A stretch of 64,000 nucleotides of DNA from an uncultured Actinomycetes bacterium. Lineage in GTDB: Bacteria > Actinomycetota > Acidimicrobiia > IMCC26256 > PALSA-610. A program made the position numbers and the translations under genes. Shown in pieces: positions 29,016-59,097 of the stretch. The notes under the pieces were generated by a model. That model did no database searches and had not been told where the DNA came from. It was given only the letters and a program-made list of their open reading frames with translations. The stretch covers positions 451,762 through 515,761 of the forward strand of contig CAVPBG010000003.1 in NCBI GenBank assembly GCA_963701825.1, written 5' to 3'. Position 1 is the first letter of the stretch; each line of letters opens with the position of its first letter.

Positions 29016-31118
29016 TCACTCCGCTTTCGTGCGGTCGTTGATGAGGGTTGCGAACTGGGGCGTGAACGCGAGCGAGCCGTTGACGGAGAGGTGCGAGCCG
29101 TCGCGGTACACGAAGAACTTGCCCCGGTTGGTCTGACAGAACGACGGGCCGCAGAGGTAGTTGTCGAAACTGATCTGCGTCATGCCGGGTACGGCCGCGA
29201 CCGCCCGGGTCTCGGCGCGGTACGACGCGGCCTGCTGGCGGGCGATCGCGGCCGCGTTCGAGCCCACACCGCAACTCGGAAGATGACTGAACGCGGTGAC
29301 GGCCGGGCACTGGTTGAGCTGCCACGTCGGGAACAACGGGATCGTGTCGACGACCGTCGCCCACACGCCCGCCTCCGCGAACTGGTGCAGCACCGACGTG
29401 TACGCGGTCTGCCATTCCACGGCCTTGGCCGCCGGGGTCGTCGAGAGCTTGCCCGTCACCGAGTCGCGGAACGAATAGCGCGAGTTCTCGATATATCCGC
29501 TCCCCCACGACGCGAGAATCACCAGCTTCGGGTGCATCTTCGCGATCGACGCGATCGTCGTTGTGACGAAACGGTGGCACGCGGTGTACGGCACGTTGTT
29601 GCGGAGCAGCACGAGATCGACGAACGGGCATTCGGAGCTCGTGGCCACGGTGAGGTCGAAGCCATCCTGTTGGCTCGCGGCGGCGATGGGCTCGACGAAC
29701 TGACCCGCGTTCGAATCGCCCAGCAAGATCACGCTGCCGTGCGGATCGGTCGCATGCCACGTGCACTTCGGCGGTCGCTTGGTGATCAGGCCGGTGCTGT
29801 CGCAGTGGCGCACCACGTCGGCATGGAACCGTGACTGGTGCGCGAGGTCCTTCATCGTCGACGTCTTCGCCGCCGCGCTCGCAGTGACACTCAACCCGAG
29901 GGCGGCGACCAGCGGGACGACGATGCACACCGCCCCGATCACCAGCGCACGCTTGCGCGGTGGGTTCGGCCGGAACCGGATCGGGCGCTCCACGTAGCGG
30001 TACGAGAGCAACGTCGGCACGAGTGACGCGATCGCGGCGAGCGTGAGCACCGCGGTGTTGCTCGAGATCATGAGCCGGGCGAACACGATGATCGGCCAGT
30101 GCCACAGGTACCAGCCGTAGGAGATGTCGCCCGTCTTGACGAGCCACTTCAGTGACAACGCCTTCGTGACACCCCGCATCGTGTGCATACCGGCGAAGAG
30201 CATCAACGCGGTACCGAGCACCGGCAGCAGAGCCGCGGTACCGGGGAACGGTGTCGTGGGCGTGAAGATCCGCATGCTGACGAGCAACATCACGGCGCCG
30301 ACGATCCCCGCAGCCACGGCCAAGCCCTGGGGCATGCGTTTCACCAACGTGCCGGCCAATGCCACGACCGCGCCCGCCGCGAATTCCCACGCCCGGGTCG
30401 GCGCGGAGAAGAACGCGACCTGGGCCGGATTGTGGATATGAACGATGCTGTAGGTGGCGTTCGTCAGGACCAGCGACAACACGAACGAGACCAGGAGACC
30501 GGCGGAGACGATCATTGCCGCGCCGGCCCGCGGCGACGAATGCGGCAACACGAGCCGCGATCCCCGCAACGCCCACAACAAGAAGAGCGGGAACACCAGG
30601 TAGAACTGCTCCTCGACTGCGAGCGACCACGTGTGCAGCAGCGGGTTCGTGGTGAGCGACGCGTCGAAGTACCCGGTGCCCACCCCGGCGAAGTGCATGT
30701 TGGCCAAGAACGTGGCGGCCGACGCGGTGGCGTGGGCGGTGTCGTGCTGCGCGCCGAGCGGGCTCTGGAACAACACCGACATCGCCGCGACGGCAACGAG
30801 CATCACCGCGAGCGCGGGCAGGAGCCGGCGCACACGACGCGCGTAGAAGTTCGGGAAGTCGAGCTTCCCGGTCGAGCGCAGTTCGCGCCAGAGCATCGTC
30901 GTGATGACGAAGCCCGAGATCACGAAGAAGGCGTCGACACCGACGTATCCGCCCGGCAACGGCAGCTCGGCGTGGAACGCCACGACCGCGAGCACGGCAA
31001 TGCCGCGGAGTCCCTGAATGTCGGCGCGCCGCGGATGCCCGGGTTCCGCCGGGCGAGCCTGACGCTCGTCCGTGCGATCGATGGTGGCCAAGTCTCCCCC
31101 CGAATCCCTGCGCCGCAC
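29016..31118 (-). CDS. Acyltransferase family 3 membrane domain fused to a C-terminal SGNH-like domain (OafA/YrhL-type O-acetyltransferase), intact
   Basis: 700 aa. DIQGLRGIAVLAVVAFHA...GGYVGVDAFFVISGFVIT, then about 10 TM helices, then an extracytoplasmic domain ...VILLGDSNAGQF... Confidence 0.85.
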   Translation of the reverse strand: MRRRDSGGDLATIDRTDERQARPAEPGHPRRADIQGLRGIAVLAVVAFHAELPLPGGYVGVDAFFVISGFVITTMLWRELRSTGKLDFPNFYARRVRRLLPALAVMLVAVAAMSVLFQSPLGAQHDTAHATASAATFLANMHFAGVGTGYFDASLTTNPLLHTWSLAVEEQFYLVFPLFLLWALRGSRLVLPHSSPRAGAAMIVSAGLLVSFVLSLVLTNATYSIVHIHNPAQVAFFSAPTRAWEFAAGAVVALAGTLVKRMPQGLAVAAGIVGAVMLLVSMRIFTPTTPFPGTAALLPVLGTALMLFAGMHTMRGVTKALSLKWLVKTGDISYGWYLWHWPIIVFARLMISSNTAVLTLAAIASLVPTLLSYRYVERPIRFRPNPPRKRALVIGAVCIVVPLVAALGLSVTASAAAKTSTMKDLAHQSRFHADVVRHCDSTGLITKRPPKCTWHATDPHGSVILLGDSNAGQFVEPIAAASQQDGFDLTVATSSECPFVDLVLLRNNVPYTACHRFVTTTIASIAKMHPKLVILASWGSGYIENSRYSFRDSVTGKLSTTPAAKAVEWQTAYTSVLHQFAEAGVWATVVDTIPLFPTWQLNQCPAVTAFSHLPSCGVGSNAAAIARQQAASYRAETRAVAAVPGMTQISFDNYLCGPSFCQTNRGKFFVYRDGSHLSVNGSLAFTPQFATLINDRTKAE

Positions 31119-31178
31119 CGCGCTCCAGTATGACTCTGGAACAGGGCCGCGCGTCCAGCGCGAGAGCCGACCGCGCGG

Positions 31179-31817
31179 CTACGACGCGAGCTCGGGCCGG
31201 TGCGCGAACGCCCAGACCACGAGGGGGAATTCGTCCTGGTTGCGTAGTGATCGCCATGACCGCATCGGTGGAAACCGGCGCAAATTTCCCCGGACCGCGG
31301 TCTTGTTGCCCCAGCTGCCGATCTCGTCCACGACGAACCCGGATCCTTCGAGCAAACGGCGCATTCCGTCCTCGGTGAAGCGCCAGAAGTCGTACGGGGT
31401 CGGGTGCACCTTGATGAGGAAGGGCGTGCTGACGATGACGCGGCCGCCGGGCCGGCACAGGTCGTGCAACGTGCGCGTCGCCCGCCACGGATCGGGCACG
31501 TGCTCGAGCACCTGTTCACAGATCACGAGGTCGTGCACGTCGAGCGCGGCCGGCGGATCGCACAGGTCGAGCTGCGGGTACGCCGACGACGAGAACTCGC
31601 GCCACGGATGCCCGCGGTGCGACGTGCCGCTGATCTCGATCACCTTGGTCTGTTCGGGCCCGAGCGCACGAATGTGCTCGGTGATCTGCCCGTTCATGAC
31701 GATGCGGCACCACTGGTCGGTCGGGCCGCCGTCGCGATAGATGCGGGCCCGGAATCGACGCTGGGCGGCGCGGGCGACGCGACCCACGCGCAGGCGTTGC
31801 GTGAGCGCCTCGGGCAT
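31179..31817 (-). CDS. SAM-dependent methyltransferase (type 11-like), intact; paralog of 26491..27195
   Basis: The ATG at 31817 overlaps the sulfotransferase TGA. ...VIEISG...LVICEQVLEHVPDPWRATRTLHDLCRPGGRVIVSTPFLIKVHPTPYDFWRFTEDGM. Confidence 0.7.
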   Translation of the reverse strand: MPEALTQRLRVGRVARAAQRRFRARIYRDGGPTDQWCRIVMNGQITEHIRALGPEQTKVIEISGTSHRGHPWREFSSSAYPQLDLCDPPAALDVHDLVICEQVLEHVPDPWRATRTLHDLCRPGGRVIVSTPFLIKVHPTPYDFWRFTEDGMRRLLEGSGFVVDEIGSWGNKTAVRGNLRRFPPMRSWRSLRNQDEFPLVVWAFAHRPELAS

Positions 31818-32848
31818 CAGCGCTTCCGGAGCTCGCCGCGGGCCGCGCGGGCCGCGCGGCTCGCCCGGGCCGCGCCGTTCGCGACCGCGGCGCGGGTCGC
31901 GTCCCAGCCCGCGCGGACGCGGTCGGGACCGGCGTTGTCGGCCCACGACTCGTCGGGCTCGTACCCGAGCTCGACCAGGAGCGCGCCGGCGTGGCGGTTG
32001 AACACCGACCGTTCGAAGGGCCCCCACGAGTCCTGCCACGTGCCGCGGCGGCCTTCCCGGAAGAAGCCGTCGGGGAACTTCAACGACTCGCCCAGGCGCG
32101 CGACCAGTTCACCGCCGACGACGACCGACGTGTACGGCCGCGACGGATCGCGCTTCAGCTGGTCGAACGAGAACGCCTCGTACAGTGCGAGCGCCTCGTC
32201 GGAGTCAGTGGTGGCGCCGCAGAAGGTGAGCGTCTTCTCGAGCACGGCCGGGCCGTCGTCGAGGAGGTCTTCGTACCGGACCTCGAGATACTGGCCCGAC
32301 GCCGCGGCCGAGGCCGCGTTGCGCACTCCCCGCACCCACATCGACGACGCCTCGCCGATATCCGCCGGCGCCCACGTGCGGCCCCAGCCCTGAGCCGCGG
32401 CCACCAGCGAGCTCACGACATCGCGACCGTCGCGCACGAGGTGGATGAACCGGGCCTCGGGAAGATACGTGCGGATGACGTCGATCGGGTGGTGGTAGCC
32501 CGGGCACTTCTCCAACACGATGTTGGCGCCCGGCTTCAAGGCCACGACGGCCTCGTGGAACGAGGCGATCATCGCCCGGACCATCTCCGAGAACTCGGCC
32601 TCGGTCATCACCGACGACACGCCCTTCAACCGACCCACCGTCTTGGGGTCGGTCATGGCGTTGACCTCGTACGACCACGCGGCGTGGAGCTGGCGGATGT
32701 AGCCGGTGAAGAACTCCGGCTCCTGCGGACTCGCGATGGACGGATGCGCGGCGAGCATGCACTGCAGCCACGTCGTCCCACTGCGCGGCGATCCGACGAG
32801 AAATACCGGAACGTGGTTCAACGCGCGCCCCGAGAGAGCGGTTCCCAT
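31817..32848 (-). CDS. Sulfotransferase family protein (PAPS-dependent), intact
   Basis: MGTALSGRALNHVPVFLVGSPRSGTTWLQCML (5'-PSB loop)...FIHLVRDGRDVVSS (3'-PB region). 343 aa. Confidence 0.8.
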   Translation of the reverse strand: MGTALSGRALNHVPVFLVGSPRSGTTWLQCMLAAHPSIASPQEPEFFTGYIRQLHAAWSYEVNAMTDPKTVGRLKGVSSVMTEAEFSEMVRAMIASFHEAVVALKPGANIVLEKCPGYHHPIDVIRTYLPEARFIHLVRDGRDVVSSLVAAAQGWGRTWAPADIGEASSMWVRGVRNAASAAASGQYLEVRYEDLLDDGPAVLEKTLTFCGATTDSDEALALYEAFSFDQLKRDPSRPYTSVVVGGELVARLGESLKFPDGFFREGRRGTWQDSWGPFERSVFNRHAGALLVELGYEPDESWADNAGPDRVRAGWDATRAAVANGAARASRAARAARGELRKR

Positions 32849-33086
32849 CGTCACGATTGTAACTGGGTGCCTGTGATCGGTCGCCGGGCGGTTCGCCGGA
32901 AACGCCGCGACAGTGCTGCGCATCGTTGTCCGATTCGCGGGAAATCGCCGGGCCGCGCGCCCGCCGGCGACGCTTCTCGGCTCTCGACGCCGCCCGCGAC
33001 CCTGGCATATCCTTCCAGCTGGGCGGATAGACCGCAGCACAGGGTTGGTGCTGCGAGCATTCGACGGGGTCGAAGGGCCGGGGGGC
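32849..33086. promoter_or_regulatory. Divergent intergenic region between the sulfotransferase operon and the giant repeat-protein gene
   Basis: 238-nt spacer. Hairpin GCAGCAC-aggg ttg-GTGCTGC at about 33035-33056, just upstream of the ATG at 33087. No confident -10/-35 assignment. Confidence 0.3.
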
Positions 33087-36000
33087 ATGGGGGATCTGAA
33101 TCCGCAACGCGTTCGACTCGGACGCGTTCCTCGCACGCTCAGGACAGCCGCGCCGCGTGCGCTGGCCGCGCTCACGCTCGGGCTCGGCATCGCGGTCGTC
33201 ACCGCCGCGCCCGCGGTCGCGGCCGCGCCGTCGGCGCCGCAATCGGTCAACGTCACTCCGGGCCCGACGGTCGGGAACATGACCATCCGTTGGTCGTCGC
33301 CCGCGTCGACCGGTGGTGTCGCGATCACCGGGTTCCAGTACCAGGTTCATGTCGACGCGGGCGCGTTCGGCGCGCCGCTCACGCTCGGCCCGTCGACCGC
33401 GCGCTCCGCGGTCGTTCCTTGCGCCGCGCCCGCCACGACCGGGCACGGCTGCACGTACGAGGTCCGCGCGATCAACGGCACATCGGGCGCGTGGAGCGCG
33501 CCGGTCGCCGCGGTGTGGTCCGTGCCGAGCCCGGCCGTCCTCGGCCGCGCGCTCGCGGGCCCGGGCGCCGGAGTCGCGACGTTGCAGTGGCGCCCGTCGG
33601 CCAGCACCGGTGGCCTCGCCGTCAGTTACGAATACGAAGTCAGCACCGGCACCGGCTTTGGCGCACCCGTCGCGATCGCGCCGGGCTCGATCTCGCTGGT
33701 CCCGGGTGAGCCGTGGCCCGTCGACTCCGCCGCGGTCACCTGCCCGTTGGGCTCGGGACCTGTCGTCAGTTGTTCCTATGTCCTGTTGGCCGTGAACGGC
33801 GTGGGCGCGAGCCCGGTATCCGTCGTACGCACCGCGGTCGAGAAGCGGCCCGGCGCCGCGACCGGCATCACCGCGTCGAACACGTCCGTCGCGCTCGGCA
33901 CCGGGCTCGCGAGCCAGACCGTCGTGTGGACGCCGCCGACCGTCAGCGGCGGGACGCCCGTCACCGACAACCGGGTCTGGGTGTGCGCGACTGCGAACGG
34001 CACACCGTGCACGAACGTCTCGACGGGCTGGACGCAGGTCACCGACCTCGTCGGCACCCCGCCCGCGTCGACCACCCCCGCGGTGTGTCCGGCCAACGGG
34101 CGCTGCGGTTACGAGGTCTGGCCGACCAACGCCGTCGGTCACTCGTGGGCCGTCGGTTACTCGCACCCGAGCCCGCCCACGACGTTGATGGCAACCGCGA
34201 GCCTCGCCGCGCCGGGTCAGGTCACGTTGTCGTGGCAGGCAACTCCCGATTCCGGCACTGCGTTCGGCCACTACGTGTTGTTCGAATGTGACTCGAACCA
34301 GACGTGCACCAACGGCAGCTGGACCGCGAACCCCGCCGACGCCGCGCCGTGGAATGTCACTCAACTGACTGCAACGCCGACGGCCACCACCACTCAGTAC
34401 CCTTGCGGTGTCGTCCACGCCTGCACCTTCGAGATCGGCTACATCGACGCCTCGGGTCACATCGGCGGCGTCACCAACTCCGTCATCACGACGGGCCTCG
34501 ACGCACCCACCCTCACCGCGGTACCCGGCGCGACGCCCGGCGCGGTCAACCTGAGCTGGACCACACCCGCCACCGGGCAGATCAACCAGTACGAGATCGA
34601 CCGCGACACCGGCAGCGGCCTCGGCTTCCTGGCCGACGTCCCCGCCGCGCCGACGTCGTACATCGACACCACCTGCGGCGCGGGCGTGACGTGTCACTAC
34701 ACGGTGCGCGCCCTGCTGTTCCCGAGCGGCACGTCGCCCGCAAGCAACGAAGCATCCGCAACGGCCCCGCTCGACTCCGCGATCGCGATCACCACTCCGG
34801 TGGCGGGCGCGCGCCTCGGTGACTCCACTCCGACCTTCTCCGGCACCGCCGCGACCCGCGAACAGCGCCACCGTGACCGTGAAGGTCTGGGTCGGCGCTC
34901 TTCCGAGCGGAACATTGCAGGAGACCCTCACCACGACCCGCGCCGCCACGGCATGGACCGTCGACGCAACGACGCTGCCCGACGGCACCTACACCGTGCA
35001 GGCGCAACAGACCACACCGTCGTCGGGCGTCGTGTTGAGCCCGCCGATCACCTTCACCACCGACACCACGGGTCCGACCGTTTCGATCACGAGTGTGAAC
35101 GGCGCCGCGCACGCGTTGCCGTTCTCGACCAGTGCGAACGTCACATCGATCGGCGGCGCGTGCGGCACGGCCACCGGTGACAACGCGACCGTGTCGGTCG
35201 CGATCGGCGGCGCCGGTTCCGAGACCGGCACCGCGCCCTGCACCGCGGGCGCATGGGCGTACACGCTCGTCACCCCGCTCACAACCGGCGGCGCGTACAC
35301 CGCGACCGTCACCCAGGGCGACAGCACGCTCAACACCGGCACGACCGGAACGCAGAGCATCTCGATCGACAAGACCGCGCCGGTCGTCACCGTCACGACC
35401 GTCAACGGAACCGTGCGTGCCCTCCCGCTCTCGACGGCCACGACCGTCACTTCCATCGGCGGCGCGTGCGGCACGCTCGCGGGCGACGCGGCCACCGTCT
35501 CGATCGCGATCACCGGCGCGAGCACCCAGAACGGCACTGCGGCATGCACCGCCGGCGCCTGGAGCTTCGCGCCGGCCAGCGCGCTTTCGGCCGACGGCGT
35601 CTACTCCCTCACCGCCACCCAGACCGACGCGGCCGGCAACACCGGCACGAGCGGCGCGCAGACGGTCACCGTCGACAAGACCGCACCGGTCGTCACCCTC
35701 ACGACGGTCAACGGAACCGCGCGCACCTTCCCGTTCCTCAGCAACGCGACGATCACCACCGTCGGCGGCGCGTGTGGCGTGGCCACCGGTGACGCACCGT
35801 CGGTGTCGCTCACGCTCACCGGCGCCGGTAGCGAGAACGGTGTCGCGGCCTGCACCGCGGGCGCGTGGACGTACACATTCGTCAGCGCGCTGACCGTGAA
35901 CGGCGCGTACTCGGTCACGGCCACCCAGACCGATGCCGTGTCGAACACCGGTACGAGCGGAGCCAAGACGGTCAACCTCGACACCACCGCACCCACACTC

Positions 36001-39000
36001 ACGCTCACCACCATCAACGGAACCGTGCGGACGTTCCCGTTCACCACGAACACCACGGTGAGCACGTTCGGTGGCGTGTGTGGCTCGGCCTCGGGCGACA
36101 GCGCGAGCGTCAACGTCTCGATCACGGGCGCGGCCACCCAGAGCTCGACCGCAGCCTGCACCGCCGGCGCATGGTCGTTCTCGCCCGCGCCCGCCCTGTC
36201 GACGAGCGGCGTCTACTCGTTGAGCGCAACCCAGAGCGACACCGCAGGGAACACCGCGGCGACGGGCGCGCAGAGCCTGACGATCAACACCCTCGCCCCC
36301 ACCGTCACGCTGACGACGGTGAACGGCACGGCCCGCACCTTCCCGCTCACCACGAATGCCACCGCCACGTCGGTCGGCGGCACCTGCACCACCGCCGCGG
36401 GCGTGAACCCCACCGTCACGGTCGCGATCTCGGGCGCCAGCACGCAGAGCGGTTCCGCCACCTGCACGACCGGTGCGTGGACATTCACGCTCACCACCGC
36501 GCTCTCGGCCGACGGCGTGTACGCCGCCACCGCGACGCAGAGCGACACGTCGGGCAACACCGGTAGCAGCGGCGCGCAGGGCATCACCGTCGACAAGACG
36601 GCCCCGACCGTCGCGCTCTCCGCGGTCAACGGCACGACGCACACGTTCCCGTACACCGCGAACGTGTCGGTCACCTCGCTCGGCGGAACGTGTGGCGCGG
36701 CGATCGGCGACAGCACGAGCGTGGCCATCGCGATCACCGGGGCCAGCACGCAGAACGGCACCGCAACCTGTTCGGCGGGCGTGTGGACCTTCACGCCGGC
36801 CACCGCGTTGTCGAGTGACGGCGTCTACACCGTCACGGGCACGCAGACCGACGCCGCGACCAACAGCGGAACCACCGGCGCACAGACGATCACCGTCGAC
36901 AAGACCGCGCCGACCGTCACGTTGGCGAGCGTCAACGGAACGGCCCGCACATTCCCGTTCACCACGAACACCACCGCCACGACCGTCGGCGGCATCTGCG
37001 GCACGGCCTCCGGCGACGCCGCGACGGTCGCGGTCGTCGTCGGCGGCGCCGGGAGTGAGAGCGGCGCGGCCACGTGCACCTCGGGCAGCTGGACCTACAC
37101 CTTCGCCACCGCGTTGGCCGCCAACGGCACCTACACCGTCACGGCCACCCAGACCGACACCGCCGGCAACATCGGCTCCAGCGGGACGAAGAGCATCACC
37201 GTCGACACCACGGCGCCGGTCGTCACCCTCACCACCGCGAACGGCGCGGGCCGGACCTTCCCCTTCACCACCAACGCGACCGTCACGTCGTTCGGCGGTG
37301 CGTGTGGGTCGGCCGTGGGCGACGGCGCGGGCGTGACCGTGTCGATCACCGGCGCGAGCACGCAGAGCGGGACTGCCACCTGCACGGCCGGCGTGTGGAC
37401 CTTCACGCCCACGACGGCACTGTCGGCCGAAGGCACGTACTCCGTAAACGCTTCGCAGAGCGACACCGCGAGCAACACCGGCTCGACCGGCGCGCAGACG
37501 ATCACCGTCGACAAGACCGCACCGGTCGTCACGCTGACCACTGCGAACGGCACCGTGCGCACGTTCCCCTACCTGTCGAACGCGGTCGTCACGACTGTGG
37601 CCGGCGCGTGTGGTACCGCGGCGGGCGACAGCGCGACGGTTTCGGTCAGCGTGACCGGCGCCGGTAGCGAGAACGGCGCGGCCACATGCACCACCGGTGC
37701 GTGGAGCTACACGTTCGTGAGCTCCCTCGCCGTGAACGGTGCGTACAGCGTCACCGCAACCCAGACCGACGGCGCGGCCAACAACGGCACGAGTGGCGCC
37801 AAGACGATCACGGTCGACACGACCGCACCGGTCATCACGCTCACGTCGGTGAACGGGACCGTGCGTTCGTTCCCGTACACAACGAACACCAACGTCACCA
37901 CGGTGGGCGGCGCGTGCGGCAGCGCGTCGGGCGACATCGCCACGATCTCCGTCGCCATCACCGGCGCCAGCACGCAGAGCGGAACCGCCACGTGTGGCTC
38001 GGGAACGTGGACCTTCTCTCCCACGACCGCGCTCTCGGCCGACGGCACCTACTCGATCACGGCCACCCAGACCGACACCGCCGCGAACACGGGCACGACC
38101 GGCGCGCAGAGCGTCACGATCAACACCCTCGCCCCGATCGTCACGCTGGCCACGGTGAACGGCACCGCGCAGACCTTCCCGTTCTCGACCAACGCCACCG
38201 TCACGTCGGTGGGTGGTGCGTGCACGACCGCAGCCGGCGTCAACCCCACCGTCTCGGTCTCGATCACGGGCGTCAGCACGCAGTCCGGCTCGGCGACGTG
38301 TACGGCGAGCGCATGGTCGTTCACACCTGGAACCGCGTTGTCCGCCGAGGGCGTGTACAGCGTCACCGCAACCCAGACCGACAACTCGGCCAACACCGGT
38401 TCGAGCGGCGCCCGCAGCATCACCGTCGACAAGACGGCGCCCACCGTTGCGCTCACCGGCGTGAACGGAACGATCCGCACCTTCCCCTTCACCACCGCGT
38501 CGACCGTCACGACGTTCAGCGGCACGTGCGGCGGTTCGCTCGGCGACGCGGGCACGGTGGCGATCGCGATCACCGGCGCGAGCACGCAGAACGGCACCGC
38601 CACCTGCAGCGCGGGAACGTGGTCGTTCTCCCCCGTCACCGCCTTCTCGACCGACGGTGGCTACGTCGAGACCATCACCCAGACCGACGCTTCCGGGAAC
38701 ACGGGCACCACCGGCGCGCAGACCATCACGGTCGACAAGACCGCACCGGTGGTCACGATCGCCGCGGTCAACGGAACCGCCCGCACGTTCCCGTTCTCGA
38801 CCAACGCCAACGTCACGACGGTCGGCGGGGCGTGCGGCACGCTCACCGGTGACGGACCCACCGTGTCCGTCTCGGTCACCGGCGGCAGCACGCAGAGCGG
38901 AACCGCGGCCTGCACGACCGGCGCGTGGACGTTCACCCTCACCACCCCGTTGTCGGCCGTCGGTTCGTACGCGGTGACCGCCTCGCAGTCCGACAGCGTC

Positions 39001-40269
39001 GCCAACATCGGCACGAGCGGCGCGCAGACGATCACCATCGACACCACGCCGCCCGTCGTCACGCTGACGACCCTCAACGGAGCGGCGCAGACGTTCCCGA
39101 TGTCGACCAACGCGACGGTCACGTCGGTCGGCGGCACCTGCGGCACGCTCGCGGGCGACGCGGCCACGGTCTCGATCGCGATCACCGGCGCGAGCACCCA
39201 GAACGGCACCGCCGCCTGCACCGCCGGCGCCTGGACCTTCACGCCCGCCACCGCCCTCTCGGCGGAAGGCACCTACGCGATCACCGCCCTGCAGAGTGAC
39301 GCGGCCACGAACACCGGCACCACCGGCGCGCAGTCGGTACTCATCGACAAGACCGCACCGGTCGTGACGGTCACCTCGGTGAACGGCACCACGCGCACGT
39401 TCCCGTTCACGACGAACCTCACGGTCACGAGCTTCGGCGGCACCTGCGGGACCGCCGGCGGCGACACCGCCTCGGTGTCGCTCGCGATCACCGGCGCGGG
39501 AACGCAGAACGGCACGACGGCCTGCACCGCCGGTGCATGGTCGCTGACGCTCACGACCGCGCTCTCGACCGACGGCGCCTACGTTGCGACCGCGAGCCAG
39601 ACCGACGCGGCCGGGAACACGGGCGCCAGTGCCGGGCAGACCACGAACATCGACAAGACGTCGCCCGCGGTCACGCTCACGACCGTCAACGGCACCGCGC
39701 AGACGTTCCCGCTCACCACCAACACGACCGTCACCTCGGTCGGTGGCGCGTGCGGCACCGCCACCGGCGACAGCACGACCGTCTCGATCGCGATCTCCGG
39801 GGCGAGCACGCAGAACGGCACCACGACCTGCACCGCCGGGGCGTGGACCTTCACGCTCGCCACTGCGCTCTCCGCGGAAGGCACGTACGCCGCCACCGCG
39901 CTGCAGGGTGACTCCGCGGGCAACACCGGTTCGAGCGGTGCGCAGTCGACGACCATCGACAAGACCGCGCCGATCGTCACGCTCACGCAGGTGAACGGCG
40001 CCGCGCAGACGTTCCCGCTCACGACCGCCACCACGATCACGTCGGTCGGCGGCGCGTGCGGCGCACTCACCGGCGACAGCACGACCGTGGCGGTTGCCAT
40101 CGCCGGGACCGGCACCGAGAACGGCACCACGACCTGCGCTGCCGGCGCGTGGACCTACACGCTCGTCACGCCGATCACCGCAGTCGGCCCGTACACCGTT
40201 ACCGCGACCCAAGCCGACACCGCCACCAACGTCGGCACGTCGGGCGCGCAGAGCATCACCAAGCAGTAG
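33087..40269 (+). pseudogene. Giant secreted Thr/Ala/Gly-rich surface protein: signal peptide, about 6-7 Fn3-like domains, then 17 tandem Ig-like repeats; one frame change near 34858 as sequenced (about 2,390 aa if read through)
   Basis: MGDLNPQRVRLGRVPRTLRTAAPRALAALTLGLGIAVVTAAPAVAAAPS (signal). Fn3-like SAPQSVNVTPGP..MTIRWSSPASTGGVAITGFQY. ORF 32913..35180 continues in ORF 34819..40269 at gcgacccgcgaac (TAAT-R/ANSATVTVKVW). No LPXTG motif or C-terminal TM segment. Confidence 0.85.
35062..40266 (+). repeat. 17 tandem coding repeats of about 306 bp (102 aa) with a 6-unit (about 1.83 kb) higher-order period
   Basis: Unit boundaries (I/V)D(K/T)T(A/S/P)P or INTLAP, counted 17 times. Consensus: ..VNGTARTFPF.TNATVTS.GGACG...GD.ATV.V.ITGASTQ.GTA.CTAGAW.F....ALSA.G.Y..TATQ.D.AGNTG.SGAQ.ITVDKTAP. 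Units 4/5/6 (DTTAPTL, INTLAPT, DKTAPTVAL) recur as units 10/11/12. Confidence 0.9.
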
Positions 40270-40287
40270 GTACAGAGGCAGAGAACG

Positions 40288-41451
40288 GTGGAAGGCGACA
40301 CGACGGTCGAGGTGGAGCAGTTCACCCTCGACCCGAAGACCCGTCTCGGTTACCGGCCTGCGCTCGACGGCCTACGGGCCATCGCCGTGCTCGCGGTGAT
40401 GATGGGCCACGCGATCAGCTCGGTCGCGCCGGGCGGTTTCTCCGGCGTGCGTCTCTTCTTCGTGCTGAGCGGATTCCTCATCACCACGCTCCTCGTCGAG
40501 GAGTGGTCGGACCGCTCGAACGTACGGCTCGGCGCGTTCTACATGCGCCGCGCGCTGCGCCTGCTCCCGGCCCTGTTCTTCCTGCTGATCGTCTACGTCA
40601 TCGCGGTCGCGGTCCTCGAGGGCGGCACCGCGGTCGGACATCTGCAGTCGAACGTCATCACGATCGCGCTGTACGTCGCGAACTGGAAGTTCGTGTTCCA
40701 GGGTCACGGCGGCGATCTCGGCCACCTCTGGTCGCTTTCGGTCGAGGAGCAGTTCTATTTCGTGTGGCCCATCGGGCTCGTGTTGATGCTGCGCTACCTG
40801 CGCCCCCGCACGATGCTCATCGTCACCGCCGCGTGTGCGGCCGCGTCGTGGATCCTGTCGGAGAGCCTGGCGCTCGCGGCGCGGGGCGGCGGCTCGATCG
40901 GCAACGTCGACAGTGTGCGGTCGGCGACCCAACGACACGCCTTCTACGGCACCGACGCGGTGGCCTACGCATTGCTCGCAGGCTGTCTCGTCGCGCTGCT
41001 GCGATCGTCGGGCAAGCTGCGCCAGTACACGGGGTACAAGCAGTTCGTCGCCCGGGCGGGGATCGTGGGCTTCGTGCTCTACAGCTGCCAGGTGCTGTTC
41101 GCGCCCGCGCCCGACATCCGCGAGATCGATCTGCTCGTGCTGACGGTCGGCTTCCTCGCGATGATCCTGTGCGCGGTCGACGTGCCCGAATCGCCACTCA
41201 CCCAGATCCTGTCGCTGCCGCCGATACGCGCCATCGGACGCGTCTCCTACGGTCTGTACCTGTGGCACTTCCCGATCCTGTCGCTCCTGCATCGCCATCA
41301 ACCGCACATGGGTGTGCCGGAGCGGACGCTCGTGGCCGCGTTGCTGACGACCGCGATCACGATCGTGTCGTACAAGCTCGTCGAACAACCGTGCCTGCGC
41401 CTGAAGCGGCACTTCATTCGCGACCCGCTCGCCGCGGGTCATCCGGTGTGA
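40288..41451 (+). CDS. Acyltransferase family 3 (membrane O-acyltransferase), intact
   Basis: GTG start 18 nt after the giant-gene stop. LDGLRAIAVLAVMMGHA...GVRLFFVLSGFLITTLL, multiple TM helices, 387 aa. Confidence 0.85.
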   Translation: MEGDTTVEVEQFTLDPKTRLGYRPALDGLRAIAVLAVMMGHAISSVAPGGFSGVRLFFVLSGFLITTLLVEEWSDRSNVRLGAFYMRRALRLLPALFFLLIVYVIAVAVLEGGTAVGHLQSNVITIALYVANWKFVFQGHGGDLGHLWSLSVEEQFYFVWPIGLVLMLRYLRPRTMLIVTAACAAASWILSESLALAARGGGSIGNVDSVRSATQRHAFYGTDAVAYALLAGCLVALLRSSGKLRQYTGYKQFVARAGIVGFVLYSCQVLFAPAPDIREIDLLVLTVGFLAMILCAVDVPESPLTQILSLPPIRAIGRVSYGLYLWHFPILSLLHRHQPHMGVPERTLVAALLTTAITIVSYKLVEQPCLRLKRHFIRDPLAAGHPV

Positions 41452-41461
41452 CCGGAGCCGG

Positions 41462-42373
41462 GTGACCGCGAAGACCAGCGTCGACACGACCACTGTCGTC
41501 TACATCGCCGGGTACGGACGCAGCGGCAGCACCCTGCTCGACCTGTTGTTGGGGCGGCTCGACGGTTGGTTCTCCATGGGCGAGTTCCGGCTGTTCTGGC
41601 ACGCGACGCGCGACCACTGGCGGTGCGGTTGCGGCGCCGACGTGGAGAACTGCGACGTGTGGTCGCAAGTGCTGCGCGATGTCGCGCCCGCCGACCGCGA
41701 ACGCGTCCTCGCGCTGATCCGTACCACGCTGCGCACCCGGCGGGTGCCGGGCCTCGTCGTCCCGCCGCTGCTGGGCTCGCACCGCGCGGCCCGCGACGAT
41801 CTCGCCGCGATCCTCGGTGCCGTCTACCCCGCCGCCGCGAAAACCGCCGGCGCGCGTGTTCTCGTCGACTCGTCGAAAGACCCCGTCTACGGACTCGTGC
41901 TCGCCGGCGTCGCCGACCTGCGCGTGCACGTGGTGCATCTCGTGCGCGACAGCCGCGCGGTTGCGTGGTCGTGGCAACGCAAACGTCTGCGCCCGGAGAT
42001 CGGATCGACCGCCGCGTACATGCCCGTGCGTTCCGCGGTGCGCACCAGCCTCGACTGGGACCTCCGCAACGGGCTCGCGCACGTCCTCGGGCGGCGCGCG
42101 GAGTCGTACACCCGCCTCACCTACGAGTCCCTCGTGCGCGATCCCGACGCCGCGGTGGCGATGGTCGCGCGCCGCGTCGATCCCGGAATTTCCCTCGTTC
42201 CGGATCCGGCGAATCTCGGCAACCACACGGTCGCGGGGAATCCGATGCGGTTCGGGACGGGCGAGATCTCGGTCACGCCCGACATGGAATGGCGCGACTC
42301 GCTCGACCCGCGCGACCGGCGCGTCGTCTCCGCGCTGACGTGGCCGTTGCGCCGTCGGTACGGCTACGAGTGA
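41462..42373 (+). CDS. Sulfotransferase family protein, intact
   Basis: VVYIAGYGRSGSTLLDLLLG (PSB loop)...VVHLVRDSRAVAWS. 303 aa, 10 nt after the acyltransferase stop. Confidence 0.75.
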   Translation: MTAKTSVDTTTVVYIAGYGRSGSTLLDLLLGRLDGWFSMGEFRLFWHATRDHWRCGCGADVENCDVWSQVLRDVAPADRERVLALIRTTLRTRRVPGLVVPPLLGSHRAARDDLAAILGAVYPAAAKTAGARVLVDSSKDPVYGLVLAGVADLRVHVVHLVRDSRAVAWSWQRKRLRPEIGSTAAYMPVRSAVRTSLDWDLRNGLAHVLGRRAESYTRLTYESLVRDPDAAVAMVARRVDPGISLVPDPANLGNHTVAGNPMRFGTGEISVTPDMEWRDSLDPRDRRVVSALTWPLRRRYGYE

Positions 42374-51909: not shown

Positions 51910-52723
51910 CGAAATCCCGCTCACCGCTACCCCGCTCTCCGCCCCCCAGGGCCGCAATCCTGCCGGATTCGACCAAAGGAACAGCGCTCCCCTAACCGGC
52001 TCCGGGGAACATACTTCCAATCCGGATTGCCAGTGGCAAATACTGCCAGTTATTCTCCGGGCGGGCGGGACGAAGTGATCGACCTTTGCGGGGCCGACCT
52101 CACCACGCCTCAATGAGACGGGGGAAGGCATGCGCAAGGTCGCTCGCGTTCTGGTCGCACCTTTGGTAGCGATCGCCACACTGGTTCCGGCCGCCGCTGC
52201 GCACGCGGCGATCTCGGGCACGAGTGGCGCAGTAACCAAGATCTCACCGCCGGCGTCGGTCGACCGCTTCACCGGTCTCGACTCCGACACCACGACCTGG
52301 GCGTGGGACGAGCAACAGGGCGTCACGCTCGCGTCGCCGATCCGCGTCGACATCACGTCGCCCGGCACGTACGACTCGAACGCGAGCCTGCCCGGCGGGA
52401 CGATCGCCGCGGGCACGGTGGTCGACAGCCACTTCTTCGACAGCGTTCCGGTCGCGACGCACGCCGGCATCACGCTGACCGCAACGCTCACCTTCCCGAC
52501 CGACGTGCTCGGTGTCATCGCGCTGCGCGGCAAGTTGTTGTCGAGCAACGTGCTCGGCGCACCCGGCACCGACTACACGACGGCCGCCGCGAGTAACGAC
52601 ATGGACCTCGATCCCGCGCAGGACGCGGTGATCATGCCCGACCAGCGCACGGTCACGATCCGCGCCAACCGCCACACCGGCGCCGACGTCGACCAGGTCC
52701 GCATCATCACCAAGCACGACAGC

Positions 52724-54425
52724 GCGCCCACCGCCAGCGCGGGCGGGCCCTACGCAGCCGTCGAAGGCAGCCCCGTCACGCTGCACGGCGTCGCGTTCGA
52801 TCCCGAAGGTGACCCGACGCAGACCTCGTGGTCGTTCGCGACCACCGGCGCGCCCGGCACCGTCTGCACCCCGACCGGAACCACCACTCTCACGCCCACC
52901 ATCACGTGCAACGACAACGCGTTGGTGACGGCGACCCTGAGCGTGAACGACCCGTTCAACCCGCCCGTCACGTCGAGCGCCCAGGTCACGGTGGCCAACG
53001 TCGCGCCCGTGCTCGGCACACCCGTCGTCTCCTCGCCCATCAGCACCACCGCGCCCGCGACCGTGAACGACACGTTCACCGACGTCGGCACGAACGACAC
53101 GCACACCGCCTCGATCGACTGGGGCGACACCACGTCGAGCCCGGCCACGATCACCGAATCCGGCGGCTCCGGCAGCCTCAGCGGTTCGCACACGTACGCG
53201 CTCTCGGGGAGCTACACGCAGACCGTCACCCTCACCGACGACGACGGCGGCACTTCGGTCCAGACCGCGGACGTGATCGTGAACGGCGCACCGACGGCCA
53301 ACGTGGGCGGCCCCTACACCGGGGCGGAAGGTTCGACGAACAACCTCACGGGAACCGCGTCCGACCCCGAGAACGATCCGCTCACCACGACATGGTCGTT
53401 CACTCCCACCGGAACCGATCCCGGAACGATCTGCACGAGCACCGGCACCACCACGCTGACACCGACCGTCACGTGTAACGACGACGCCGTCGTCAACACG
53501 CAGCTCTCGGTCAGCGACGGCATCAACACGCCGACGCTCTCGAACACCACCGTGACCGTCAACAACGTCGCGCCGGTTCTGTCGCCGCTCACCGCGTCGG
53601 CCGGACCGATCGCCGTCGCCGCCAACGCGAACGTGAGCGCCACGTTCACCGACGCCGGCACCAACGACACGCACACCGCTTCGGTCAACTGGGGCGACCT
53701 CACCACGTCCAACGGGACGATCACCGAGGCGGCCGGCTCCGGCAGTCTGAGCGCGACGCACGCATACGCGAGCGCGGGCCTCTACACGGTGACCGTCACC
53801 TTGGCCGACGACAACGGCGGAACTGCGGTGCGCAGCACGCAGATCCTCGTCAACTCGCCGCCCGTCGTCGACGCCGGTGGCCCGTACGTCGGGCTCGAAG
53901 GCTCGACGATGTCGCTGGCCGGAACGGCAACCGATGTCGACGGTGACAGTCTCACGTACACGTGGGCCTTCACCTACACCGGCGACCCCGGCGTTGCGTG
54001 CACCCCGACCGGTGCCGGCATCCACGCGCTGACGCTCAACCTCGTGTGCACCGACGACGCCGTCGTCACCGCCACCCTGACCGCGAGCGACGGCGTGAAC
54101 CCGCCGGTCACGAGTGCACCGACCACGCTGACCGTCGGGAACGTCGCGCCGACCGTCGGCACGATCGTCGAGTCGCCGACCGCGCCGCCCGGCAGCACCG
54201 CCGGGATCTCGGCGACCTTCACCGACCCCGGAACGAACGACACGCACACCGCCACGATCGACTGGGGCGACGGCCACGTCACCACCGGTGCCGTCGCGGA
54301 GTCGGCCGGTTCGGGCACCGTCACCGGTTCGCACACCTACGCCGTCGACGGCAGTTACAACGTGACCGTCACGGTCACCGACGACAACGGCGGCTCCGGC
54401 ACGTCGACCTCGGCGATCCTCTCCG
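52724..54425 (+). repeat. Three tandem coding repeats of about 565 bp (Ig-like + PKD-like domain pairs)
   Basis: Unit starts: APTASAGGPYAAVEGS (52724), APTANVGGPYTGAEGS (53287), PPVVDAGGPYVGLEGS (53858). Confidence 0.8.
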
Positions 54426-54673
54426 ACACGTCGCCGCCGGTGATCACGCCGACGGTTTCGCCGACGCCCAACGGCGCGGGTTGGAACAACTCGCTCGTGA
54501 CCGTCACGTGGACGGTGACCGATTCGGTCTCCCCCATCACGTCGATGACGGGCTGCGACCCGACGACGCTGTCGAGTGACTCGGCATCCACGACGTACAC
54601 CTGCTCGGCCACGAGCCGCGGCGGGACCGCGTCGCAGTCGGTCACCATCAAGCTCGACCAGGTGGCACCGCTC

Positions 54674-57600
54674 CTCAGCGGCGCGGCGACCACACCGCCC
54701 AACGCCAACGGTTGGTACAACGCACCGGTGAGCATTCACTGGACGTGCTCCGACGCGCTCTCGGGCGTGGCCGGAACCTGTCCCGCGAACACGACGCTCA
54801 GCTCCGAGGGCTCGGCCGTCACCGCGAGCGCGTCGGTCTCCGATGTGGCGGGCAACGTCACCAACGCTACGAGCGCGCCGGTCCAGATCGACACGCACGC
54901 CCCGGTGACGACCGCTTCGGCCGTCCCCACGTGGAACAACAACGACGTCGTCCTCACGCTCTCGGCCACCGACAACCTGTCGGGCGTCGACACGACGAAC
55001 TACATCGTCGACGGCGGCGCCACCCAGTCGGGTAGCTCCATCGTGCTGACTGCCGAAGGCATCCACACGGTGCAGTTCTGGAGCACCGACCTCGCGGGCA
55101 ACGTCGAGGCCGCGAACACGGCAACGGTTCGCATCGACAAGACCGCACCGACCATCACCGCCGCGCAGTCGCCGGCGGCCAACGGCGCGGGCTGGAACAA
55201 CACCAGCGTCACCGTGACCTTCACATGCGGCGACTCGCTCTCGGGCGTGTCGGCGTGCGCGGCGCCGCAGACGGTGACCGCCGAAGGTGCGAACCAGTCG
55301 GTGACCGGCAACGTCTCCGACGAGGCCGGCAACACCGCTTCGGTGACGCACACCATGAACATCGACGAGACGCCGCCGACCATCACCGGCTCGGTGCCCC
55401 CGGCGAACGCGAACGGCTGGTACAACGCGCCGGTCACCGCGTCGTTCACGTGCGCCGACGCGCTGTCGGGTGTCGCAACGTGCCCGGCTTCCACCACGCT
55501 CAGCACCGACGGTGCCGGGCAGTCGGTGTCGGGTACCGCGATCGACACCGCCGACAACCCCGCGACCACAACGGTCAGCGGCATCAACATCGACCAGACC
55601 GCACCGACGATCACCGCATCGGTGAACCCGGCGCCGAACAGCTCGGGTTGGAACACCGGCTCGGTGACGGTGCACTTCACGTGCTCCGACGCCACGTCGG
55701 GCGTTGCCCCGGCCGATTGCCCGCCCGACCAGAACGTGACGGCCGAGGGCATCTCGACGGTCGCCGGTACGGCAACCGACCAGGCCGGTAACACGACCTC
55801 CACGTCGGTCGTGGTGCGCATCGACACGATCGCACCGGCCATCACGGGTTCGCAGACGCCGGCGCCGAACGGCGCGGGTTGGAACGACACCGACGTCACG
55901 GTGTCGTTCGTCTGCACCGACTCCGGCTCGGGTATCGCGATCGCCGGTTGCTCGACGCCGACACTCGTCGGTGAAGGCGCCTCGCAGGCCGTGACGGGCA
56001 CCGCGCTCGACACCGCCGGCAACTCCGCCTCCACGACGGTGAGCGGCATCAACGTCGACAAGACGGCGCCGACGCTGTCCGGTGCGCCCACCACGGCGCC
56101 GAACGCGAACGGTTGGTACAGCGGACCGGTGACCATTCACTGGACGTGCTGCCGACGCGCTCTCCGGGATCGCGGGCGGCTGCCCGGCCGACTCGGTCAT
56201 CAACAGTGAAGGCGTGTCGGAGACCGCAACCGCGGCTGTGAGCGACGTCGCCGGTAACAGCACGACTGCAGTGTCGGCTTCGGTCAACATCGACCGCACC
56301 GCGCCGACCACCGCCGTGTCGTCGGTTCCCGACTGGTCGAACACGTCGGTGAACCTCACGCTGACGGCGAACGACAACCTCTCGGGCGTCGCGTCGACCA
56401 ACTACACGGTCGACGGTGGCGCAACCCAGAGCGGTACCTCGGTTGCCCTCACGACCGAGGGCGTGCACACGGTGCAGTTCTGGAGCACCGACGTCGCGGG
56501 CAACGTCGAGGCCACGCACACCACCGTGGTGAAGATCGACACCACTGCGCCGATCATCACCGCGGCGCAGGCGCCGCCCGCGAACGGCGCCGGATGGAAC
56601 AACACCAACGTCACCGTCACCTTCGTGTGCAGCGATGCCCTTTCCGGCATCGCGTCGTGCACGCCGGCCCAGACGGTCACAACGGAAGGTGCGGGCCAGT
56701 CGGCGACCGGCCACGCAGTCGACAACGCCGGTAACACGGCCGCCGCGACCGCGACGCTGAACATCGACAAGACCCCGCCGACGATCCACGGCACGGTGCC
56801 GCCCGCCAACGTGTTCGGTTGGTACAACGTGCCGGTCACGACGAACTGGACGTGCGGCGACGCACTCTCCGGGGTCGCGACCTGCCCCAACCCGAGCACG
56901 CTCTCGAGCGACGGCCTCGGCCAGTCGGTCACGGGCACCACGAGTGACACCGCCGGTAACCCGGCGAGCGCGACGGTCAGCGGTATCAACATCGACCAGA
57001 CCGCGCCCGTGCTCACTCCGTCGGCCCCGGCGACCCCCATCGCCGGCTGGTACGCCGGACCGGTGACCGTGCACTGGACCTGCACCGACAACCTGTCGGG
57101 TGTGGTCACGTGCCCGGCCGACCAGACCGTCACCGCAGAGGGTGTCACGAGCCTGGCGCAGACGATCACCGACAAGGCCGGCAACAGCACGACCAACGTG
57201 ATCACCATCCGCATCGACAAGACCCCGCCGGTCATCGTCGGTGCCGCCGCCCCCGCGCCGAACGGCAACGGGTGGAACAACTCCAACGTGACGGTGAGCT
57301 TCACGTGCTCCGACACCCTGTCGGGCACCGCGTCGTGCTCCGGCCCGTCGACCCTCGGCGAGGGTGCACACCAGTCGGTCACCGGTACGGCGACCGACCA
57401 GGCCGGCAACGTCGGCTCGGCGACGGTGAGCGGGATCAACGTCGACGAGACGGCCCCGACGCTGTCGGGTACGCCGACCACCGCGGCGAACGCGAACGGT
57501 TGGTACAAGAACGCGGTCACGATCCACTGGACGTGCGCCGACGCGCTGTCGGGCGTCGACGGATCGACCTGCCCGGCCAACTCGATCATCAGCGGTGAAG

Positions 57601-58612
57601 GCACGGCGCAACAGCAGGCGCGCACAGTGTTCGACCTCGCCGGTAACGCGGCGAGTGCGAACAGCACGCCGGTCAACGTCGACCTCACCGCGCCCGTCAC
57701 CTCGGCGTCGGCCATCCCGCCGACGGCGAGCTCGGTCACGGTGACGTTCACGGCCACCGACAACCTGTCGGGAGTCGCGTCGACCAACTTCTCGGTCGAC
57801 GGTGGCGCCAACCAGGTCGGCACGAGCGTGACGTTCAACACCGTCGGCACGCACACGCTGACCTACTACAGCGTCGACAAGGCCGGGAACGTCGAGGGCA
57901 CGCACGTGGCCACGGTGAACATCTCGGTCAACGCGCCGACGATCACCGCCAGCCTCTCGCCGCCCCCGAACGCGGCCGGTTGGAACAAGTCGAACGTCAC
58001 GGTGACGTTCACGTGTGTCGACGCGGTGTCGGGGATCGCCTCGTGCACCCCGCCGCACACCGTCACGACCGAAGGTGCGGGCCAGCACGTGGCCGGTACC
58101 GCGATCAACCACGCCGGTCAGAGCGCCAGCACCACGGCAACGGTGAACCTCGACAAGACACCGCCCTCGATCAGCGGAACGCTCAGCGGTTCGCCGAACA
58201 GCTACGGCTGGTACAAGGTTCCGGTGACGGCGTCGTTCACGTGTGGTGACAGCCTCTCCGGCATTGCCTCGTGCACGAGTCCGGTGTCGATCCTGCAAGG
58301 CGCCAACCAGTCGGTGACAGGCACCGCGGTCGACGTTGCGGGGAACACCTCGACCAAGACGGTCGGACCGGTGAACGTCGACCTCACGAAGCCGACGATC
58401 ACCGCCACCGCCACGGGTTCGATGTACAACGGTCAGTACTCCGGCAACGTGACGATCCACTTCACGTGCGCCGACGCACTGTCGGGGATCGTGCCCACCA
58501 CCGGTTGCCCGGCCGACCAGGTCGTGACCGCCAGTGGCACGACCACGGTCAACGGCACGGCAACCGACCGGGCCGGTAACACCGCCACGACGAGCATCAC
58601 GGTCACCGTGAA
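54674..58612 (+). repeat. Three super-repeats of about 1.39 kb, each holding several Ig-like domains and one chitobiase-C-like domain (the third is shorter)
   Basis: Unit starts: LSGAATTPPNANGWYNAPVSIHWTC (54674), LSGAPTTAPNANGWYSGPVTIHWTC (56075), LSGTPTTAANANGWYKNAVTIHWTC (57462). Confidence 0.8.
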
Positions 58613-59097
58613 GAGCGTCTGCGAGCGGGAGCAGGACCGTTGGATCGAGGTCGACTGGTACCGCGGTCGGGCGTCGTTCTTCGACGCACTGCGCCTCTTG
58701 CACATCGAGGCCGACCTCGGCGACTTCCTGGACCCGTCGAACTGTCACGGTGGTGACCACATCGACCACGGTCACGGTGGGCACTGCTACGGCGACCAGT
58801 ACGACGCGGTCTCGAGTATCCGGGCGTTGTACGGCATTCAAAGCGTGCCGAGCGCAACCCTCGGCGCCTGGATCGACGACCTGACCGATTCGAGCCGGGT
58901 GATCGCCGCGACTGCGATCAACGACGCCAACAGCTCGAACGGCAGCTCCTACTGGATCTCGCGGGCCCAGTCCGAGCTGAACGCAGGCGACCAGTCGAAC
59001 AACAACAACGACAATGCCGGCGCCGTCGGCCACTACCAGAACGCCTGGCAGTACGCGATCCAGGCGTAACTGCCCAGGACTGTCGCAGTTGTGACTC

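Follow-up and report, generated by a model that had tools for sequence, protein, structure and literature searches.

A giant Ig-repeat gene of an uncultured actinobacterium: 17 cysteine-paired Big_13 units, an inherited six-unit higher-order repeat and a predicted Sec-exported stalk

What kind of protein is built from 17 tandem copies of one 102-amino-acid (aa) domain, and what lies behind the six-unit pattern that runs through these copies? The question is raised by a giant gene at 33087-40269 in a 64,000-nucleotide (nt) stretch of DNA, called the window here, from an uncultured Actinomycetes bacterium (GTDB lineage Acidimicrobiia; IMCC26256; PALSA-610; assembly GCA_963701825.1, contig CAVPBG010000003.1, positions 451,762 to 515,761). 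An initial annotation, made from the letters alone, had recognised immunoglobulin (Ig)-like repeats in this gene. The units are members of the Big_13 / BIg extender class, i.e., a new member of an already known family. As for the whole protein, we give a probability of roughly 0.7 to its being the Sec-exported, disulfide-stapled and Ca2+-stiffened stalk of a fibrillar adhesin-like protein of ~2390 aa, a reading made from sequence and predicted structure. The array and two of its units, numbered from the N-terminal side, are as follows.

35059..40260, + strand: 17 Ig-like units (Big_13 / Ca_tandemer), 102 aa long, with Cys35 and Cys61 in every one (Tandem Repeats Finder (TRF), translation, profile matches, model)
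36283..36588, + strand: unit 5, type D (INTLAP ... AAGVNP); of the three Asp aligned with the SiiE type I Ca2+ site, two are missing (alignment)
38119..38424, + strand: unit 11, type D, Asp2 and Asp41 lost as in unit 5 (unit listing)

TRF reported a single array (35098-40260, period 306, 16.9 copies, 69% matches). When the boundary motif was located in the translation of the stop-free frame 34819-40269, the region 35059-40260 resolved into 17 consecutive units, each exactly 102 aa (306 nt) long, with zero indels, the first starting at 35059 and each of the others 306 nt after its predecessor. The initial annotation's count of 17 tandem 102-aa Ig-like units is thus correct, as is its claim of two conserved cysteines per unit, with Cys35 and Cys61 occupying 34 of 34 positions. 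Its motifs were drawn too tightly: of the two that it assigned to every unit, GG[AT]CG is found in 11 and C[TS][ATS]G[AVT]W in 13 of the 17, and its boundary motif, taken as a literal regular expression, is broken by units 1 and 4. Invariant positions include P6, N14, P21, G33, C35, G40, C61, W66, G78, Y80, Q86, D88 and N92, and pairwise identity among the 17 units is 45-76% at the aa level and 63-80% at the DNA level. The array is made of 24.6% Thr, 15.7% Ala, 12.3% Gly and 9.8% Ser (together 62% of residues), and charged residues are scarce. Its 1734 residues contain 38 N-x-S/T sequons (e.g., VNGT and QNGT at fixed positions), which may be a mere by-product of the 25% Thr content and would become relevant if a glycosyltransferase of the surrounding locus proved to act on the protein.

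The profile search for which the initial annotation had called gave the Ig-like family a name. Pfam PF19077 (Big_13) matched in 16 stretches with 388.5 bits (E=1.8e-118; gathering threshold 27 bits), NCBIfam NF033510 (Ca_tandemer, a Ca2+-stabilised adhesin repeat) matched in 9 stretches with 172.6 bits (curated cut-off 50 bits), and in the genome search 15 single-unit Big_13 matches exceeded the cut-off. When a profile of two-unit segments was compared with solved structures, the sole sequence match in the PDB was SiiE BIg50-52 (E=5e-10). An AlphaFold2 model of units 5-6 is all-beta with a pLDDT of 96.4, and its top Foldseek matches were again SiiE BIg50-52 (2YN5/2YN3, TMq 0.66, 27-28% identity; E=3.5e-9 for 2YN5_A over two domains), so that the modelled beta-sandwiches superpose on solved extender domains. 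The next matches were MpIBP (5IRB and 4P99) and assorted tandems of fibronectin type III (FN3) domains; an S-layer protein first appeared at rank 43.

In SiiE, the type I inter-domain Ca2+ site consists of D117 of the preceding domain together with D43 and D97 (PMC5466336). In the HMMER alignment, Asp41 and Asp88 of a unit and Asp2 of the next unit (in the VDKTAP linker) fall on three conserved SiiE Asp, which we take to be D43, D97 and D117, and W66 falls on the conserved SiiE Trp (W74 by the same reading). The type I site can thus be traced by alignment, and Asp2, Asp41 and Asp88 are present together in 15 of the 17 units, with units 5 and 11 lacking both Asp2 and Asp41. Among 621 homologous domains, the residues kept family-wide are D88 (611), N92 (593), D2 (537) and W66 (514). 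Across the genus, 117 units have Asp2 and Asp41 together, 35 have neither and 3 have one without the other, a co-occurrence that is not an independent statistical test because the units are related by duplication.

The cysteines follow a comparable all-or-none pattern. Both are present in 135 of the 621 domains and a single one in about 4, at least one of these in noisy sequence; across ~100 homologous proteins, units nearly always have both or neither, and domains without Cys mostly have Ala, Ser or Thr at the first of the two positions. Named carriers of the pair are metagenome-assembled genomes (MAGs) of Acidimicrobiia, Acidimicrobiales and Thermoleophilaceae, while Cys-free homologues include Pseudoalteromonas, E. 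coli, Enterobacter and Methylobacterium and also Frankiaceae and Asanoa; because of this spread, the pair marks a subfamily and not a phylum-wide rule. Two congeners with long arrays, the same-genus GTDB representative G260 (68 units) and ENA ERZ25039488 contig_2010 (~118 units), have one Cys-free unit each, both Cys having been lost together. In both arrays (L034 and L013, respectively) it is unit 5, with the linker NLVVPV, and Gly and Thr replace the two Cys. One Cys35-Cys61 disulfide per domain is a plausible and economical reading of these patterns, and the genome search found a DsbB homologue (53 bits) and a partial DSBA match.

The remainder of the gene supplies a predicted export signal and a different kind of beta-sandwich chain. 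G301 in the lines below is the complete chromosome OY970186.1 (MFD04967.bin.c.5), which holds an intact ortholog, and P0004 is a database protein.

33087..40269, + strand: whole gene, 2393 aa if an extra C at 34855 is disregarded; here split over the open reading frames (ORFs) 32913-35180 and 34819-40269 (G301 ortholog, P0004)
33087..33221, + strand: predicted Sec signal peptide with an Arg-rich n-region, the hydrophobic stretch ALAALTLGLGIAVVTAAPAVA and A-x-A before AAPSAP (read from sequence; pattern in orthologs)
33222..34787, + strand: ~5-6 FN3-like domains with 14 Cys in 7 close pairs, spaced 6-10 residues (weak Pfam fn3, AlphaFold, Foldseek)
34788..35058, + strand: Cys-free Ig-like domain (ITTPVAGARLGDSTPTFSGTA...) that joins the FN3 module to the array and holds the frameshift (sequence; similar module in orthologs)
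40267..40269, + strand: stop codon, two residues (KQ) past unit 17 (translation)

Residues 1-45 comprise an Arg-rich n-region, a hydrophobic core and AVA before AAPSAP, and the A-x-A/AAPSAP pattern recurs in the orthologs P0008, P0050 and P0053, which together predict a cleavable Sec signal peptide. Residues ~46-567 were modelled by AlphaFold as an all-beta chain of FN3-like domains (pLDDT 83); the Pfam fn3 match is weak, and the Foldseek matches are multi-FN3 proteins (titin, gp130, contactins and fibronectin). A paralog of this FN3 module (27% identity, in a 520-aa open frame) lies ~30 kb past the window end, at G000:C3:546120-547427, and G301 holds a paralog at the matching distance. A Cys-free Ig-like module similar to that at 34788-35058 sits at the C-terminus of P0053 and P0050. 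The mature protein would have 48 Cys, all in recognisable pairs (34 in the array and 14 in the N-terminal module).

At the other end, the protein closes with ...TSGAQSITKQ*, and the C-termini of the orthologs are the same or similar, with the two long congeners also ending directly after a unit (...NIVHA* and ...TITHA*). The initial annotation's statement that the protein stops right after a unit, with no sortase signal, transmembrane segment or known anchor, therefore describes a trait that is kept in relatives. The LPXTG motif, hydrophobic segment and charged tail of a sortase-anchored fibrillar adhesin are missing, and the protein does not have the make-up of a repeats-in-toxin (RTX) adhesin either: with the stop two residues past unit 17, there are no C-terminal RTX nonapeptide repeats or type 1 secretion system (T1SS) signal, and a Sec-like signal peptide followed by FN3-like domains stands in place of an N-terminal retention module. 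The Pfam and NCBIfam scans found neither HemolysinCabind nor any other C-terminal family.

Put together, these parts suggest the following course. The protein would be exported through Sec via its N-terminal signal peptide and would fold outside the membrane into a chain of about six FN3-like domains, one plain Ig-like domain and 17 Big_13 (BIg) domains. Each BIg unit would be stabilised internally by one Cys35-Cys61 disulfide, and most junctions would be stiffened by Ca2+ held by the linker Asp2 with Asp41 and Asp88, as in the SiiE type I triad. The outcome would be a semi-rigid rod of several tens of nanometres, by our estimate from SiiE and MpIBP dimensions, which may project or space a binding end from the cell or build a matrix. 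The extracytoplasmic rod proposed in the initial annotation gains support from the Sec-type signal peptide and the SiiE-like fold; the adhesive function and the mode of retention of the rod protein are what we infer beyond this.

Several observations weigh against the stalk reading. Ca2+ binding by the array units is proposed from alignment. The C-terminus has no hydrophobic tail and no LPXTG, i.e., no known anchor type, yet the genome contains four sortase genes. Neither the Pfam scan nor the structural matches revealed an enzyme, lectin or other head domain, and all of the protein's modules resemble generic beta-sandwiches. VKOR (PF07884) and the DsbA-type Thioredoxin_4 (PF13462) had no match in the 73%-complete genome. 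Finally, the gene is frameshifted in this assembly, a matter taken up below.

With neither an anchor nor a recognisable binding head, the protein could instead be a structural component of the envelope or matrix (S-layer-like, a sheath or a biofilm scaffold), possibly glycosylated, and released or held non-covalently by its FN3 module. The abundance of Thr (25%) and of T+A+G+S (62%) would suit such a role, and so would the setting, for the gene lies inside a large glycan locus in which an acyltransferase-3 gene begins at 40288, 18 nt past the stop, sulfotransferase genes flank it at 31817-32922 (- strand) and 41462-42373 (+ strand), and GT2 genes follow further on. This neighbourhood is syntenic in G301. 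However, no such acyltransferase or sulfotransferase genes were found in the regions retrieved around the 68-unit and ~118-unit orthologs, so that the linkage is not conserved at the genus level and a functional link to modification of the protein stays weak. The closest solved structures are, moreover, adhesin extenders and not S-layer lattices, given the rank of the first S-layer match. We thus regard an envelope or matrix component as unlikely and retain the adhesin-like stalk.

The frameshift bears on whether the gene is intact at all.

34855..34855, + strand: single extra C (GACCCGCG here vs GACCGCG elsewhere) by which the reading frame changes within the Cys-free Ig-like domain (absent from L011 and G301)

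The signal peptide and N-terminal domains, from the ATG at 33087, are in the frame of ORF 32913-35180, and the repeats are in that of 34819-40269. The initial annotation had treated 33087-40269 as one open frame, overlooking the extra C and with it the different frame of the N-terminal part. We read a single gene with a +1 shift near 34855 because the Ig-like domain spans the junction (...STPTFSGTAAT / NSATVTVKVW...), and the database protein P0004 reads through it uninterrupted (GTAATANSATV). P0004 comes from ENA ERZ25039538 contig_16406 (L011), which shares 99.83% identity with the window across 12.2 kb; the C at 34855 does not occur in this contig, which instead has an extra base of its own at window position 39023. 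Over window positions 30086-42299 the two differ by 16 substitutions and 4 indel events (5 gap positions), and 12 of the 20 differing sites scored lie within 1 nt of GCGC/CGCG, against a background of 18% (binomial p=4e-5). Such clustering is the signature of systematic long-read error and not of strain variation, and it suggests motif-linked, probably methylation-linked, Nanopore consensus errors across the genome.

G301 has an intact 2393-aa ORF, from MGDLNP... to ...SITKQ. With the extra base of the window left out, the alignment of the two genes is gapless over 7182 nt (identity 93.1% in nt and 95.7% in aa), the ratio of nonsynonymous to synonymous substitution rates (dN/dS) is 0.12 in the N-terminal part and 0.10 in the array, and all 34 array Cys are kept. 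The downstream 1816-aa frame contains no further stop or indel relative to G301. As the extra C is absent both from a near-identical assembly and from a complete chromosome, the frameshift is very probably an assembly artefact, a Nanopore consensus error. The window genome consists of 5 contigs with only 73% marker completeness, which fits scattered indel errors.

That same completeness, low for so few contigs, could also mean many broken genes, and since the frameshift stands in the assembly the gene might be a true pseudogene in this strain, with only a 590-aa FN3 fragment and an out-of-frame tail being made. Against this are the independent assembly with its insertion at a different position, the clustering of assembly differences that is expected of systematic Nanopore errors at modified motifs, MFD record names of the relatives that point to the Nanopore-only Microflora Danica MAG collection (PMC12313526), and the intact 1816-aa frame with its dN/dS of 0.10. 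We therefore find a pseudogene very improbable. A programmed frameshift at 34855 was considered and rejected, for two near-identical relatives do not have the base. There is a practical caution here for users of these Nanopore MAGs: the apparent break in this gene is probably a consensus error linked to GCGC/CGCG, and the same possibility should be weighed for other apparent frame breaks in the window. In G301 (L050, reverse complement, ~9106-10015), for instance, the homolog of window 41462-42373, a sulfotransferase-like gene that is intact in the window, is split over two frames, likely by another consensus indel, this time in the relative.

The six-unit period claimed in the initial annotation is real, faint in this genome and strong in the two congeners. 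The parts of the window array that correspond to it are listed here, with letters denoting unit types.

35671..37506, + strand: higher-order repeat copy 1, units 3-8 (B, C, D, E, probably F for unit 7, whose tree placement is not settled, and a divergent sixth)
37507..38730, + strand: clearly corresponding part of higher-order repeat copy 2, units 9-12 (B, C, D, E)
38731..40260, + strand: C-terminal edge units 13-17, best matches of the last units in the 68- and 118-unit congener arrays (by best-match labelling)

Within the window, mean aa identity is 64.2% at a unit offset of 6 and 56-61% at other offsets (permutation of unit order, p=0.0017; 0.039 when corrected over offsets 1-11). Units 3-9 (75%), 5-11 (76%) and 6-12 (70%) are reciprocal best pairs, whereas 4-10 (66%) is second best and 2-14 (74%) lies at an offset of 12. 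In DNA, the predicted off-diagonal of about 1.8 kb appears as a diagonal at +1836 with the highest identity of all (74.2% over 3.1 kb); because every other unit offset also aligns at 70-73%, the period signal from this genome alone is weak. Corresponding units have a synonymous divergence (dS) of 0.56-0.78 and a dN/dS of 0.24-0.38, a sign of purifying selection, and with the gapless G301 ortholog these values support the proposal of an old and maintained array.

The two long congeners make the period plain. ENA ERZ25039488 contig_2010 has the same N-terminal module (51.5% identity) ahead of its units, and in both congeners identity is 76-82% at offset 6, 78-89% at offset 12 and ~60-65% at other offsets; G260 and the two called pieces of the ENA array also show a weak sub-period of 3 units. 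Both follow a fixed unit order: VDKTxP (B), VDTTAP (C), INTAAP (D1), VDKTxP (E), VDRTLP (F) and IQTxAP (D2). These six types in fixed order support and extend the initial view that a block, rather than single units, was duplicated. A maximum-likelihood tree of 73 units places window units 3/9, 4/10, 5/11 and 6/12 together with units of the relatives in B, C, D and E clades (support 96/98, 83/83, 100/96 and 96/92, respectively). As these clades are common to the congeners, the six-unit block was inherited and is not a one-off duplication here. By best-match labelling, the last units of the long arrays correspond to window units 13-17 and the regular repeat occupies the array centre. The higher-order repeat is thus inherited within the genus, its centre having expanded or contracted and its edges diverged, with about two copies in this lineage. 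The array would have evolved by unequal recombination in steps of the six-unit repeat, leaving two partial copies and diverged edge units here and an expanded centre in the congeners.

Tandem 306-nt units are hard to assemble, and the relatives with 68 and ~118 units contain 3 and 44 frame switches, so that their exact lengths are uncertain; the array length of 17, or the period itself, might accordingly be a product of assembly collapse or expansion. Nevertheless, three assemblies (the window, ENA ERZ25039538 contig_16406 and the complete chromosome OY970186.1) have 17 units that correspond one to one, and units only ~70% identical in DNA are too diverged to collapse. For this lineage, the artefact that the initial annotation had named as its own possible undoing is refuted, and we hold it to be scarcely credible as an explanation of the array length or of the period. 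None of the more remote homologs retrieved for the FN3 module at the N-terminus (30-37% identity, from the same order) is followed by 2-Cys Big_13 units, and for this reason the comparison of copy numbers is confined to the genus. Arrays of 17, 68 and ~118 units with orthologous unit types form a clean natural series for studying how arrays of this kind lengthen by several units at a time. We consider this series and the Cys-pair subfamily neat and not surprising, the protein being of a known kind and not a new system.

Could the six-unit super-repeat itself be functional? Of the six unit types of the congeners, D1 and D2 are Asp-less, and 13 of 62 and 20 of 76 scored units are without both Asp. 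If the SiiE analogy holds, one in six junctions of the window array (units 5 and 11) and about one in three in the congeners would lack the Ca2+ site, and as a matter of speculation an Asp-less junction might act as a hinge or as a differently packed link. The full proposal would be that Ca2+-free joints recur periodically and that rod length is tuned in whole super-repeat steps (17, 68, ~118). It would have a counterpart in titin, whose A-band super-repeats of 7 and 11 Ig/FN3 domains are eukaryotic and intracellular and have a period that matches a known partner lattice. The likeness, an analogy and not a homology, lies in a long beta-sandwich chain with domain types at a fixed multi-domain period that is conserved across species. 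If the proposal were true, the period might be matched to a periodic partner, e.g., an envelope glycan or a self-assembled lattice; we think it distinctly unlikely.

Giant Ig-repeat stalk proteins are the means by which many bacteria reach surfaces. To our knowledge, the well-studied ones are type 1-secreted, cysteine-free and Gram-negative; here, the same extender domain occurs in an actinobacterial protein that is predicted to be Sec-exported and has a strictly conserved Cys pair per domain. A search of the literature on Acidimicrobiia adhesins found nothing.

The best match in both sequence and structure is SiiE of Salmonella enterica (53 BIg domains; PDB 2YN3/2YN5). The two proteins have in common ~100-aa tandem units, the match of Asp2/Asp41/Asp88 to the type I Ca2+ triad and of W66 to the conserved Trp (by alignment; PMC5466336), and a rod-like extender role that would apply here by analogy. 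SiiE, unlike the protein here, is exported by type 1 secretion in a Gram-negative bacterium and carries its secretion signal at the C-terminus; at the positions aligned with the unit Cys it has other residues, and it has a second (type II) Ca2+ site, whose Asp pair is missing here. The protein in the window, in turn, differs in its N-terminal Sec signal, its Cys pair per domain, its FN3 module and its actinobacterial host.

MpIBP region II of Marinomonas primoryensis, with ~120 Ca2+-dependent Ig-like repeats of 104 aa (PDB 4P99), resembles the array in unit size, and 4P99 and 5IRB are structural matches of the array model; the ~118-unit congener matches it in copy number. Linker Ca2+ as a stiffener is a theme of the RTX-adhesin extender family (PMC4083281, PMC7493085). 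The MpIBP repeats, however, are identical copies (PMC4083281), whereas the units here are 45-76% identical in aa, with dS 0.6-0.8 and a six-type super-repeat, and the Pfam scan found none of the RTX repeats, T1SS signal or retention module of MpIBP and other RTX adhesins. The giant adhesin of Mobiluncus mulieris (Actinomycetota; 51 domains; PMC10619420) is, like the protein predicted here, a giant actinobacterial surface protein of tandem Ig-like domains. Its domains have covalent cross-links within them, including a conserved disulfide, to which the disulfide predicted here would be the counterpart. It belongs to a different domain family (ester and isopeptide, Cpe0147/Spy0128 type) and has an LPxTG anchor and a thioester adhesive head, none of which was seen here.

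Two further observations concern other genes of the window. The mechanical ORF of the upstream sulfotransferase, 31817-33328 (- strand), overlaps the start of the giant gene by 240 nt, and the sister-assembly call of 368 aa (window 31817-32922) leaves a divergent intergenic region of 164 nt (32923-33086). A second giant secreted-protein gene is represented by the adjacent ORFs 52130-56209 and 56214-59069. PKD, DUF7743 and, weakly, Big_13 were matched on either side of the break, and 52130-59069 may be a single gene that a stop or an error has broken in two.

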